Assembly (NCBI RefSeq): GCF_054482525.1
Contig: NZ_CM137006.1
Direction: 5' to 3' (one strand)
DNA length: 64,000 nt
A program made the position numbers and the translations under genes. Positions 5,420 through 10,119 of the stretch are shown in pieces; positions within the stretch are counted from its first letter, which is position 1; every line of letters begins with the position of its first letter. The notes below the pieces were generated by a model. It ran no database searches, was not told the DNA's origin, and saw nothing but the letters and a program-made list of their open reading frames with translations.

Positions 5420-6313
5420 ATGAAACCGCAGGTGTACCACGTCGATGCTTTTACCTCACAACCGTTTCGCGGCAATTCTGCCGGTGTTGTTTTCCCCGCC
5501 GATAATCTCAGTGAAGCGCAAATGCAGCTTATCGCCCGCGAATTAGGTCATTCCGAAACTGCTTTTCTGCTGCACAGCGACGACAGCGATGTACGCATCC
5601 GCTACTTTACGCCAACGGTTGAAGTGCCGATTTGCGGTCACGCGACAGTAGCTGCGCACTATGTCCGTGCGAAGGTGCTAGGTTTAGGAAATTGCACGAT
5701 CTGGCAAACGTCACTGGCAGGAAAACATCGCGTGACTATCGAAAATCACAATGATGATTATCGTATTTCACTGGAACAAGGTCCGCCGGGCTTTGAGCCA
5801 CCGCTGGAAGGTGAAGCTCGCACGGCAATTATCAACGCGCTTCATCTCACTGAAGACGATATTCTGCCAGGCTTGCCAATTCAGGTGGCAACCACAGGAC
5901 ACTCAAAAGTGATGATCCCACTGAAACCAGAAGTGGATATCGACGCCCTTTCGCCTGATCTTGCTGCGCTGACCGCTATCAGCAAACAGATTGGCTGCAA
6001 TGGTTTCTTCCCGTTCCAGATCCGCCCAGGCAAAAACGAAACCGATGGTCGTATGTTCTCGCCTGCCATTGGTATTGTGGAAGATCCGGTGACTGGCAAT
6101 GCCAATGGCCCGATGGGTGCATGGTTGGTACATCACAACGTATTGCCCCACGATGGCAACGTGTTGCGTGTTAAAGGCCATCAGGGGCGCGCATTGGGGC
6201 GTGACGGCGTGATTGAAGTGACGGTGATAATTCGCAATAACCAACCGGAGAAAGTCACCATTTCTGGCACAGCGGTGATTTTGTTTCATGCCGAATGGGC
6301 AATTGAATTCTGA
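5420..6313 (+). CDS. yddE: PhzF-family isomerase-like protein
   Basis: 297 aa; sequence and position (between narV and nhoA) match YddE. Confidence 0.8.
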   Translation: MKPQVYHVDAFTSQPFRGNSAGVVFPADNLSEAQMQLIARELGHSETAFLLHSDDSDVRIRYFTPTVEVPICGHATVAAHYVRAKVLGLGNCTIWQTSLAGKHRVTIENHNDDYRISLEQGPPGFEPPLEGEARTAIINALHLTEDDILPGLPIQVATTGHSKVMIPLKPEVDIDALSPDLAALTAISKQIGCNGFFPFQIRPGKNETDGRMFSPAIGIVEDPVTGNANGPMGAWLVHHNVLPHDGNVLRVKGHQGRALGRDGVIEVTVIIRNNQPEKVTISGTAVILFHAEWAIEF

Positions 6314-6320
6314 AACCGTT

Positions 6321-6384
6321 GCCTGATGCGCTTCGCTTATCAGGTCTATGTATGCCGGATAAGGCGTTTACGCCGCATCCGGCA
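6321..6384. repeat. REP (repetitive extragenic palindromic) element between convergent yddE and nhoA
   Basis: gcctgatgcgcttcgcttatcaggtctat followed by tgccggataaggcgtttacgccgcatccggca: canonical REP consensus in two palindromic units. Confidence 0.55.
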
Positions 6385-6396
6385 ACCTGACATAAA

Positions 6397-7242
6397 TTAT
6401 TTTCCCGCCTCCGGGTGCGTATCAAACGCCGCCATCACCATCGCTAACTCATCCACAGTAAAGCCATGTTTCGCATCATCTACGCCCAGACCAAACTGTT
6501 CCTGCATCACGGTATATAACGACGCCACATCTGGTAGATTTCGCTGCTCCACCGCGTGCCCATTTTCATAATGGGTAAAATGAAAATTGGTCAGCGTTAG
6601 CTTGCCACCGTCCGGCAAATGGCGGTACATCAGCAAATGATGGCGAAAATGCGACTGCGGCCAGTGCGCAGACCAGAAATTGCCCATTACATAATCGCTT
6701 TGTTGCTGCTCGCAGAGATCAAAACGGTACATCGACTGCCAGTGCTGATGATGATTAAACTGCAACACCCAATCATCACCCTCCTGTAACAACCGATACT
6801 CTCCGTGTGGCGTGATCTGCACGAGATCGGGAACTAAACGAATCGGCGCGGTTAGCGTCTGTCCACCGAAACCGACATCAGCAATCCATTTTTCCCCTTC
6901 CAGTTCCACCAACAACAAACGATGGGTGCGCGGCGGTAATGCTGGCGGATTTGATAACACTACGCGCCCTAACAAGCTGCGAACGTTAAACCCCAGCTCG
7001 CGTAACACCCGCTCAAACACGCCATTCTGCTCAAAACAGTAACCGCCACGACGGGCTGTCACCAGTTTCTCTTCCAGCGATTGATCATCAAGCTGTATTT
7101 CCCTTGGCAGCAAAACGTCGAGGTTTTCAAATGGAATGGTGCAATTGTGTTTCAGGTGCAATGCACGCAGCGTATCAACATTGACCGCAGCAGCTCCCGA
7201 CCAGTTAATACGGGCAAAATAATGATTCAGAATGGGCGTCAT
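6397..7242 (-). CDS. nhoA: Arylamine N-acetyltransferase (N-hydroxyarylamine O-acetyltransferase)
   Basis: 281 aa; NAT-family sequence at the expected position. Confidence 0.85.
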   Translation of the reverse strand: MTPILNHYFARINWSGAAAVNVDTLRALHLKHNCTIPFENLDVLLPREIQLDDQSLEEKLVTARRGGYCFEQNGVFERVLRELGFNVRSLLGRVVLSNPPALPPRTHRLLLVELEGEKWIADVGFGGQTLTAPIRLVPDLVQITPHGEYRLLQEGDDWVLQFNHHQHWQSMYRFDLCEQQQSDYVMGNFWSAHWPQSHFRHHLLMYRHLPDGGKLTLTNFHFTHYENGHAVEQRNLPDVASLYTVMQEQFGLGVDDAKHGFTVDELAMVMAAFDTHPEAGK

Positions 7243-7416
7243 CAGGCGTTTCCCTTAGTGGTTTTCTCAACTTATAACCTGGAATAGACGCCGCACCGGC
7301 TATTTTGTGCGATCGCGGACATGCATCACGTTCGCAAATCGCCAATCCCGTTAATTTCGTTACTTATAGCGTTACGAGCTACGCTTTTAAAACACCCTTC
7401 TTAGCGAGGCGATACC

Positions 7417-7986
7417 GTGAGCCGATTTATCCCCGTCGAATTACACCATGCCAGCCGTCTGTTAAATCATGGCCCAACTGTCTTGATCACCAGTTTCGAT
7501 GAGCAATCCCAGCGGCGTAACATTATGGCAGCAGCCTGGTCAATGCCGGTGGAGTTTGAACCGCCACGCGTGGCGATTGTGGTAGATAAATCGACATGGA
7601 CCAGGGGGTTGATTGAACGTAATGGTAAGTTTGGCATCGTTATCCCGGGTGTTGCAGCAACTAACTGGACGTGGGCGGTGGGAAGTGTGTCGGGGCGTGA
7701 TGAAGATAAGTTTAATTGCTATGGTATTCCGGTTGTGAAAGGTCCGGTACTTGGTTTGCCTCTGGTCGAGGAAAAATGTCTGGCGTGGATGGAGTGCCGC
7801 TTGCTACCTGCGACTTCCGCGCAAGAAAAATACGACACGCTGTTTGGCGAGGTGGTATCAGCAGCGGCAGACGCACGGGTATTTGTCGAAGGCCGCTGGC
7901 AGTTTGATGATGATAAACTCAATACACTACATCACTTAGGTGCTGGCACGTTTGTTACCAGCGGCAAGCGAGTCACCGCGGGCTAA
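7417..7986 (+). CDS. yddH: Flavin reductase-like domain protein
   Basis: 189 aa, GTG start; matches YddH size and context. Confidence 0.75.
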   Translation: MSRFIPVELHHASRLLNHGPTVLITSFDEQSQRRNIMAAAWSMPVEFEPPRVAIVVDKSTWTRGLIERNGKFGIVIPGVAATNWTWAVGSVSGRDEDKFNCYGIPVVKGPVLGLPLVEEKCLAWMECRLLPATSAQEKYDTLFGEVVSAAADARVFVEGRWQFDDDKLNTLHHLGAGTFVTSGKRVTAG

Positions 7987-8051
7987 AGAATCATATGCAG
8001 CAACCAAGTTGCTTAAGCAATGTTTCAATATGAGTTAAAAGCATACTTTAT

Positions 8052-8249
8052 TTACGATTGTATATTTTTAGTGAAGATTAATTTATCCTCACCAATATCA
8101 TAGTAATTGCGTATTATAGCTTCATTGATAAAGCCCTGTTTTGTATAAAATGCGCGGGTGGCACTAAAATCGACATAGCTGGAGGTCTCTACTAAAAGTA
8201 GTCTTGCGTGATTGGGACAGGTCAAGAAAAAGCAGTTTTGCAGTTTTTT
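8052..8249 (-). pseudogene. Remnant of a GNAT-family N-acetyltransferase (C-terminal about 65 codons, no start codon)
   Basis: Minus-strand frame translates to ...LLLVETSSYVDFSATRAFYTKQGFINEAIIRNYYDIGEDKLIFTKNIQS*, resembling the C-terminal motif of GNAT acetyltransferases such as RimI; frame is closed by TGA just upstream and has no Met. Confidence 0.3.
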
Positions 8250-8377
8250 ATTTCAGGGCACAGTTGCGAAAATTGAATACCGTATGGACTAATGTGAGAA
8301 AATTCCGAGGTATGACTGTTTTGATATAGTGGACAATCAAGCGTCTCGAATTAACAATGAATTTCAGGTGCCAAGCC

Positions 8378-8623
8378 TTACAATTTGTAGCATGACGGAT
8401 ATAGGACAACATTAGGAAATCGGACAGAAAATTCATTATAATAAAATGACAACTTATCTCTTTCTCTCACGTTCTGTGAAATTTCACAAAAGTATAAACT
8501 GAGCCAATATGCCTTTATATATAAAAAATACTCATGTTTATTATTATCGGAAAAAGCCAAGATTTTGTCAAGGCCATCAAAAATATCTTTATCATGATCT
8601 ATATGTACTCTTGATGATTTCAC
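8378..8623 (-). CDS. Hypothetical 81-aa protein, unsupported ORF in AT-rich DNA
   Basis: Track ORF with GTG start immediately 3' of the H-repeat transposase; no recognizable family and no good ribosome-binding site. Confidence 0.15.
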   Translation of the reverse strand: MKSSRVHIDHDKDIFDGLDKILAFSDNNKHEYFLYIKAYWLSLYFCEISQNVRERDKLSFYYNEFSVRFPNVVLYPSCYKL

Positions 8624-9800
8624 AATACAGGGAAAGATTACGAAAGCCCGCTCCCCGCAAGGACTGACGCGAGATAGTTTCTGTCCATGGCTGCTTTTCG
8701 CATCTTACGTCTTAACCCTGCCTTGAATACCTTATCATTCGTCAAAATATTAATAGCGATGTGCCGTATCCCTGAAAATAATTCTGCGGCGTTTCCTCTT
8801 CTTATTTTGCAGTCGTCTTCATTCATTACCACGTCCAGACGCCAGTGCAGCTTATTCTCTACGTGCCAGTGATTTCGGATCGCTGTGGCGAACTTTTCTG
8901 CGGTTAAATCAGCAGAACTGATATAATATCTGACCGTCATTTCTGGCTCTTTCTTTTGTTCTGCTATTATTGACCGAAAAGAGACTGCCACGCATAATTT
9001 CTTCAGTCCTTTCCATTCAAACGTGAAATCAATAAGTTCATCAGGGACATCGCAAACAATATGAAGACGGATTTCTTCTCTGCCGTGACTCTTTTCACTT
9101 ATTTCGTAACTGTCATGCTCTGGATTATTTAATTCTTTCAGCGGAAATTTTCCCTCAAAGGCTTTATTTAGTCGTCCCTGATTTCCTTTTACAGCGAATA
9201 AATAATCACCGCCCTGTTTTTGTATCTTCTCTGCAATATCTTTCTGGCAACCCATCGCATCAGTTGTGATGATTTTTCCTTTAATATCCAGCATCTTAAG
9301 AAGTTCAGGGATAGCTGTAATTTCATTGGATTTCTCATCCGTCCTGATCTGTCCGATGACCAGACTGTGCATTGTTGAGAACGCACTAATGACATGAATC
9401 GCTCCCTTGCGGCGACTCTTGTCATAAGAGTGCCGGAGTGTTTTTCCATCAATTGAGATGACGTCTTTATCATCTGAAGAATGACAATCACGCATCCAGT
9501 TAATAAAGCACTCGTGAAATTTTGCAGGACTGATACAGGATACAACTCTGGCGATGGTATCGTGAACAGGAATACCATTTTCAAAATCACCATATTGTTT
9601 TAAAAAATCGAGATGTGTTTCCCCAAAATCCTCTATACCTTCCCAACCTTCTGCACCCGAAATAACGGCACAAATAGTCAACAGTAGAATATCCGATAAT
9701 TTATGTTCCACTTTCCAGGCTTGTCTGTAATCGGGGATAATAGAAATATGTTCCATCATTTTTTTAAGTTCCATTTTGTTCTCCTTAATTATGTAAGGAG
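8600..9800 (-). mobile_element. H-repeat (ISAs1-like) insertion element, approximate extent
   Basis: Transposase ORF plus short flanks; terminal inverted repeats were not identified, so the boundaries are approximate. Confidence 0.5.
8638..9774 (-). CDS. H-repeat-associated protein (ISAs1-family DDE transposase), apparently intact
   Basis: 378 aa with [18 protein letters not shown]... N-terminus typical of E. coli H-rpt proteins; ATG preceded by an aggag ribosome-binding site; Rhs-locus context. Confidence 0.85.
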
Positions 9801-10052
9801 TATTTGATCATGTATAAGCAATAAAAACAGCTTTAGGTAATGAGGAATATCTCAATTTTTAAACATAAAATGCGAATTATTTAGTACAGAAAGTGAACTT
9901 CTGATGATCTTTCCCTGCCCATTGGGTTCATTAAGATCAAGAATAATGGGAATATGCTCAAGAAGACTTTGAATGTTCACCAGACGTCCTTTTCTAATAT
10001 ATTTAATTATTTGGCGATTGAATTTTAATCAAATCAACAAGGTAAAACCAAG

Positions 10053-10084
10053 ATTAAAGTTGTGATGATAATCACAACTTTAAT
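10053..10084. repeat. Perfect 14-bp inverted repeat with 4-nt loop
   Basis: attaaagttgtgat gata atcacaactttaat, 36 to 67 nt 3' of the putative immunity gene; AT-rich stem, so not a typical intrinsic terminator. Confidence 0.5.
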
Positions 10085-10119
10085 GATCTTCCCCTGATTC
10101 CTCCAGTCCTTTTATTTGG

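Follow-up and report, generated by a model that had tools for sequence, protein, structure and literature searches.

Insertion sequences (ISs) of the ISAs1 family carry a single long open reading frame (ORF) within 1.2–1.5 kb and produce a target-site duplication of 8–10 bp (ISfinder), and copies that share at least about 95% nucleotide identity with ISEc1 are by convention counted as its isoforms (ISfinder). The H-repeat (H-rpt) was reportedly first described in papers of the 1990s, by Zhao et al. in 1993. H-repeats are described as part of the Rhs elements of E. coli (PMC3486870; PMC3032704), H-rpt is listed among the components of these elements, and ISAs1-type ends right after Rhs immunity genes are a known feature of them (PMC3486870). 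The authors of the E. coli W genome paper state that H-rpt has never been seen to transpose (PMC3032704), and the papers that we consulted on ybfD/ybfL and on mobilome sequencing added nothing on H-repeat transposition. Two H-repeats of E. coli K-12 stand closest to the one described here: ydcC (b1460, H-rptE, 'H repeat-associated putative transposase'), which lies between an rhs element and yddH, and the RhsB-linked yhhI (ISEc1), which lies 3′ of rhsB and its immunity gene yhhH in the same orientation. At both RhsE and RhsB of K-12, the H-repeat is distal to rhs and an immunity ORF, and we found the same layout in the stretch of DNA analyzed here (64,000 nucleotides, hereafter the window).

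The window is a piece of E. coli chromosome with the gene order narZ-narY-narW-narV-yddE-nhoA-yddH, and its positions 8000–10600 are 100% identical to several RefSeq genomes. The minus strand carries, in this order, vgrG, an intact rhs core gene with a Tox-WTIP C-terminal toxin tip (10491–14645, 1,384 aa, outside the IS), an Rhs immunity-type gene (10120–10464, 114 aa, as annotated by RefSeq), an IS remnant, and the H-repeat (8628–9917). The H-repeat ORF thus has the position and orientation of the H-repeat component of an Rhs element, 3′ of rhs and the immunity gene and in the same direction, and we confirm the placement just 3′ of the rhs–immunity pair that was given in a preliminary description of this DNA. 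The feature is the H-repeat of the RhsE locus, with the gene ydcC, and represents a structurally complete, ISEc1-like IS of the ISAs1 family. As an element it is ordinary and already described, and we claim no novelty for it as such.

To map the ends of the element, which the preliminary description had proposed to seek together with a target-site duplication by comparison with other H-rpt copies, we searched positions 8300–10250 against 5,426 complete E. coli genomes, 5,348 of which had a match. Query positions 329–1618, corresponding to window 8628–9917, were the alignment limits in most of the matches listed, and the places matching the H-repeat, about 25,700 in total, ranged from 1 to 17 per genome (median 5). 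At these limits we found perfect inverted repeats of 11 bp, namely IRR (CAGGGAAAGAT, 8628–8638), which overlaps the stop codon of the transposase gene, and its perfect complement IRL (ATCTTTCCCTG on the plus strand, 9907–9917); the ends were therefore located, and no target-site duplication was found at them. A terminus of the same CAGGG.AAGAT type also occurs on the yncI-type ISAs1 element of K-12, and its retention on an element whose DNA is only about 66% identical to the H-repeat supports the view that the H-repeat termini are functional sites. The size of the element, 1,290 bp with one ORF of 1,137 bp, lies within the range of the ISAs1 family. The eight other full-length copies compared all measure 1,291 bp, and the base that the window element lacks would lie in the 5′ leader between IRL and the start codon (9775–9906, minus strand; 143 nt including IRL). 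With yhhI it shares 96.4% of its DNA over 1,291 bp and about 97% of its protein, which by sequence would make it an ISEc1 isoform at a locus other than that of yhhI; RefSeq labels yhhI 'ISAs1-like element ISEc1 family' and names the window gene ydcC, with the product label 'ISAs1 family transposase' only.

The comparison with K-12 ydcC is closer in position. Both copies occupy the same locus in the same orientation relative to rhs, encode 378 aa (about 96% protein identity) and share 95.7% of their DNA sequence over the full length. Their left termini agree, the right terminus of the K-12 copy is one base off (CAGGGCAAGAT), and the window leader is 1 bp shorter. Both flanks differ exactly at the termini: the K-12 copy is flanked by pptA on the IRR side and by a yncI pseudogene element of about 1.19 kb on the IRL side, whereas in the window the IRR side is occupied by a truncated gene for a hypothetical protein of 211 aa (8378–8627, minus strand), of which a C-terminal portion of about 83 codons remains, cut off exactly at IRR, and the IRL side by a yncI-like remnant of 179 bp. 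In K-12 and most strains, yddH and the H-repeat are separated by pptA; the window retains only about 35 bp from the 3′ end of this gene, and its place is taken by a block with a truncated GNAT gene and the hypothetical gene (7987–8627) that is present at a coverage of at least 80% in 237 of the 5,426 genomes. A small ORF beside yddH (8052–8225) is a C-terminal piece of this GNAT acetyltransferase gene, which is complete (126 aa) in strain 2012C-4502 and has suffered an internal deletion of about 464 bp in the window at approximately 8211–8213. The neighboring yddH allele (7417–7986) reaches an identity of 99% or more in just 34 genome records, compared to only 90–95% in 4,983, and this whole chromosome segment therefore belongs to a divergent, uncommon haplotype.

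The preliminary description had reported an intact ISAs1-family H-repeat transposase of 378 aa, with a ribosome-binding site, next to the Rhs module, and this is borne out by the ORF, by domain and family searches, and by the RefSeq gene name. The ydcC gene runs from an ATG at 9774 to 8638 on the minus strand (378 codons, the length of both YdcC and YhhI of K-12) without a frameshift or internal stop, and it is preceded by a Shine-Dalgarno sequence, AAGGAG, at 9781–9786, 6 nt ahead of the ATG (9774–9772). A weak promoter-like match lies in the leader at 9816–9788; a promoter scan of the region returned 9 matches against 8.3 expected in shuffled sequence, and because such matches are no commoner than in shuffles, we do not claim a promoter. 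An Rfam scan of 7900–10700 returned only a chance-level match (BTnc231, E = 0.2, 21.6 bits against a cut-off of 80.4). The protein matches Pfam DDE_Tnp_1_assoc at residues 8–94 (E = 1.7e-33) and DDE_Tnp_1 at residues 102–343 (E = 1.1e-29), both above the gathering score, and the NCBIfam family model transpos_ISAs1 (NF033564) with 412.8 bits against a cut-off of 70 (E = 8.8e-124). We aligned YdcC with 95 full-length family representatives that are 35–53% identical to it. All of these 96 diverse sequences have E306, and at least 90% of them have D109 and D172; D109 sits in the motif IDGK (G110 and K111 being invariant) and D172 in TxDAMGCQ. By alignment, the predicted catalytic triad D109, D172, and E306 is complete, and the intactness of the gene, including its DDE residues, held up when checked as the preliminary description had suggested.

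An AlphaFold model built on the alignment of the representatives (mean pLDDT 94.6, pTM 0.91) places D109 on a strand (105–113), D172 just after a strand (168–171), and E306 on a long helix (292–316), so that the predicted core has the RNase-H fold, interrupted between D172 and E306 by a beta-rich insertion. The best fold match in the PDB was Tn5 transposase (E = 3.7e-9, TM 0.52–0.55), followed by piggyBac. The transposase of Tn5/IS50 (IS4 family) shares with the YdcC model the RNase-H-fold DDE core and a beta-rich insertion at the corresponding place. Their sequences are only 10–12% identical, the N-terminal domain differs (DDE_Tnp_1_assoc in YdcC), and YdcC is shorter, with 378 aa compared to about 477 aa for the Tn5 protein. 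We know of no ISAs1 member for which the hairpin cut-and-paste chemistry of Tn5 has been shown. In YdcC, the N-terminal helical domain presumably binds DNA, and the protein would recognize CAGGGAAAGAT, the 11-bp repeat at both termini, where it would cleave and rejoin the DNA.

Between the H-repeat and the immunity gene, we identified the left-end remnant of a second, yncI-like element of the ISAs1 family (9918–10096, 179 bp, minus strand). It begins with the terminus CAGGGGAAGAT at 10096–10086, has a GTG start at 9980 whose first 21 codons (VNIQSLLEHIPIILDLNEPNG) resemble the N-terminus of K-12 YncI, and ends exactly at the IRL of the H-repeat, with which it shares its orientation. The stop codon of the immunity gene lies 23 bp from the remnant terminus, and in K-12 an ISAs1-type left end likewise lies directly 3′ of the immunity gene, at a distance of about 78 bp. 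The remnant contains a perfect hairpin at 10053–10084 (14-bp stem, 4-nt loop) that scores as terminator-like on the minus strand, just after the immunity gene, and a hairpin of different sequence occupies the corresponding position in the yncI end of K-12. We speculate that the remnant hairpin may end the rhs–immunity transcript and shield the transposase gene from read-through. The window remnant and the left end of K-12 yncI are only about 72% identical, indicating that they are different elements rather than one insertion, and we therefore dropped K-12 yncI as a member of the deletion series of the remnant.

To see how the element fares at this locus in other strains, we sampled the yddH locus in 16 of them. 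The H-repeat was intact in 6, interrupted by a stop at codon 60 in 3, reduced to a fragment in 6, and absent from 1, in agreement with the earlier statement that H-rpt copies are often degenerate. The island site, from yncH to yddH, was the same in all strains sampled. 19KM1776 and 2012C-4502 have the arrangement of the window, and in K-12 the order is pptA, the ydcC IS, yncI′, ydcD, and rhsE′. OkiPb01706 carries two intact direct H-repeat copies, each 3′ of an rhs tip–immunity module. STO_Bone4 has lost pptA together with the whole island and keeps only the IS, flanked by yddH and ansP, and CDE6306 has neither island nor IS (yddH-pptA-sulfatase-GGDEF-yncG). The copies with the stop at codon 60 (CFSAN064035, A39, and ERL06-2497) lie between pptA and an IS1 fragment that is followed by rhs, FDAARGOS_1371 and 14EC020 retain only the 5′ part of the IS beside a GGDEF gene, and Ecol_316, WP8-S18-ESBL-07, UTI89, and DETEC-P836 have IS fragments beside an island with M35-peptidase, vgrG, and PAAR genes. 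In OkiPb01706 (locus L016, 1720–1760), the last 18 bp of the pptA-proximal H-repeat are tandemly duplicated at IRL (CCTGATGATCTTTCCCTG twice), which is another small rearrangement at an IS end.

We then asked how long the element has been in place and whether its gene is maintained. Compared to six other copies, ydcC has a dN/dS of 0.09–0.14 at a dS of about 0.16, and compared to its positional orthologue in 2012C-4502, which has the same flanks, a dN/dS of 0.11 at a dS of 0.16. These values indicate that the reading frame is under purifying selection, a signal that gene conversion between copies could mimic or add to. Between the window and 2012C-4502, identity is 95.9% for the H-repeat and 95.3% for the 6.8 kb around it; the IS has diverged in step with its neighbors and has therefore been resident long enough to do so with its frame retained. 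These comparisons show that the H-repeat has long resided where it is now, on the yddH-proximal edge of a vgrG–rhs type VI effector island. Copies that are at least 99% identical occur in only 33 records, and those inspected were at the yddH locus. The exact 378-aa protein is recorded in 1,357 blocks of public assemblies, of which we read 23, and all 26 contigs read with it had the Tox-WTIP tip, the 114-aa gene, the IS, yddH, and nhoA. Plasmid records with a match are few (25 out of 72,556), most being megabase-sized or very small contigs, and the two inspected were pieces of chromosome mislabelled as plasmids: CP054253.1 (narI-nhoA-yddH-ansP) and NZ_OY754386.1 (nfrA-nfrB) carry the plasmid label and look like mis-assigned chromosome segments. 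Within the 64 kb of the window, a BLAST search with 7901–10700 found no second H-repeat copy. We found no target-site duplication at the window copy (flanks ...TTTCACAATA before and CCCATTGGGT... after the IS), at K-12 ydcC and yhhI, at the two copies each of 2012C-4502 and OkiPb01706, at the copy of STO_Bone4, or at the copies in F138, CFSAN064035, ERL06-2497, and A39. With no duplication at any full-length copy examined, none of these E. coli copies shows a clean transposition event by this family. The missing duplication fits later rearrangement at the ends and is no argument against membership in the ISAs1 family. Taken together, nothing in these results points to recent transposition of the window copy, which has probably stayed where it is. 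Its sequence is compatible with transposition competence, so that it may, as the preliminary description suggested, still be mobile.

A different kind of activity is suggested by the DNA next to the element. When strains are compared, the flanking DNA changes exactly at both H-repeat termini, and the yddH locus presents at least seven different junctions at IRL and at least four at IRR. Window 7000–8627 is collinear with positions 6014–7642 of the Ecol_316 locus (L004), and the window from 8628 onward matches L004 from 9047 onward; compared to Ecol_316, the window lacks 1,404 bp that exactly abut IRR and comprise most of the 211-aa gene and all of a 186-aa gene. The 211-aa gene is uninterrupted in 194 genomes, and the IRR junction of the window is found in 46. 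Compared to K-12, STO_Bone4 lacks 259 bp exactly abutting IRR; 2012C-4502 lacks a further stretch of about 35 bp of the remnant, exactly abutting IRL, and its second H-repeat replaces 1,485 bp of vgrG (window 15320–16804). The copy beside nfrB in F138 was considered as a clean new insertion and rejected, as cusS is replaced there. Deletions that run from an exact IS end into unique DNA are a classical product of intramolecular transposition, as in IS1, IS10, and IS903. Since the deletions are exact at the terminus and homologous recombination between copies is unable to make them, we infer that an H-repeat transposase, that of the window copy or of a relative acting in trans, was probably active at the locus in the past. 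The losses of 259 bp and 1,404 bp suggest past transposase-mediated adjacent deletions, and the earlier proposal that the element may have rearranged its neighborhood gains indirect support from these two deletions, both of which start at IRR, and from the change of flanks at both termini. In the explanation that we consider probable, the H-repeat would have acted in cis and given rise to deletions with one endpoint exactly at a terminus; one of them, the loss of 1,404 bp, would have made the IRR junction of the window, and the truncation of the yncI-like IS to 179 bp may be another effect of the H-repeat in cis. Terminus-anchored deletions could also stem from illegitimate or homologous recombination at IS ends that does not involve this transposase.

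Recombination is central to the alternative that fares best, although we still consider it unlikely: that the H-repeat no longer transposes and is merely a portable repeat at which homologous recombination swaps or deletes Rhs tip–immunity cassettes. The two intact direct copies of OkiPb01706, each 3′ of an rhs tip–immunity module, speak for this explanation. In a laboratory-evolved strain, about 1.3 kb were lost by fusion of the neighboring H-repeat genes ybfL and ybfD, indicating that H-repeat copies serve as substrates of homologous recombination in the laboratory (PMC10044804), and the literature holds no observed transposition (PMC3032704). The block of the tip, immunity gene, and remnant in the window (9950–10600) is moreover 99.1% identical to OkiPb01706, while the adjoining IS is 95.6% identical and has another junction, a mosaic that suggests recombination near the IS end and separate histories of cassette and IS. 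However, recombination between copies cannot yield deletions that run from the exact outer terminus into unique DNA, and it leaves the purifying selection on the ydcC ORF unexplained. There is a more far-reaching proposal, to which we give slightly less credence: the ydcC H-repeat would be a long-resident transposase, maintained by selection, that mainly in cis trims and reshapes the distal edge of the vgrG–rhs effector island through terminus-anchored deletions, and ISAs1-type ends would more generally mark the 3′ boundary of rhs tip–immunity cassettes and join in their exchange, giving the element a real role in Rhs toxin turnover rather than that of a bystander.

Selection on the frame could also mean that YdcC is a domesticated or host-retained transposase, fixed in place because the host uses it, for example to remodel or regulate the effector island, and no longer a selfish mobile element. 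K-12, the window, 2012C-4502, OkiPb01706, and STO_Bone4 all have it at one locus and in one orientation, the dN/dS between positional orthologues is 0.11, the exact allele was seen only at the yddH locus in the 26 contigs read, and STO_Bone4 keeps the IS alone after the loss of the whole island and pptA. Nevertheless, we regard this explanation as a shade less credible again. The terminal repeats are still perfect, as expected of a mobile element, and the 1–17 matching places per genome, with a median of 5, are typical IS behavior. CDE6306 lacks both IS and island, and the stop at codon 60 in three of the sampled strains and the fragments in six show that the host does not need ydcC.

Delivery of the rhs toxin module by the H-repeat, whether within a composite transposon or through one-ended mobilization, is highly improbable. 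In its favor, the immunity genes of two unrelated cassettes (window and K-12) are each followed directly by an ISAs1-type left end, and direct H-repeat copies flank vgrG′-rhs-immunity in 2012C-4502. Against it, the second of those copies replaced 1,485 bp of vgrG and is thus a later, destructive event, the 64-kb window holds a single copy with no second one bracketing the rhs cargo as in a composite transposon, a target-site duplication is lacking, the island occupies one chromosomal site in all strains sampled, and IS and cassette differ in divergence. We infer that the H-repeat did not bring in the rhs toxin tip, and the suggestion in the preliminary description that it may have delivered the toxin module is not upheld.

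Two further observations concern the toxin module itself. The vgrG gene upstream of rhs (14712–16820, minus strand) is cut short at codon 592 of its 702 codons by a stop (position 15047) that results from a single G-to-A difference from 19KM1776, and a 591-aa product is called in two other assemblies (L026 and L027); the stop could impair delivery of the Rhs toxin. In addition, 17 of the 19 differences between the window and 19KM1776 over 19.6 kb cluster in about 400 bp of the rhs core (12645–13038), as if gene conversion had copied in a tract of another rhs paralogue there.

On its own, the H-repeat matters little, being a known part of Rhs elements whose gene is already named by annotation pipelines. 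What our analysis adds is descriptive: the precise limits of this copy, a nested remnant that belongs to another ISAs1-type element, and comparative evidence for the repeated loss of DNA from the exact termini. Together with the absent target-site duplication and the purifying selection on ydcC, these details are useful for annotation and not surprising. If the transposase is responsible for the terminus-anchored deletions, they would be the first, indirect, sign of biochemical activity of H-rpt, and the H-repeat would help to shape a type VI effector island.
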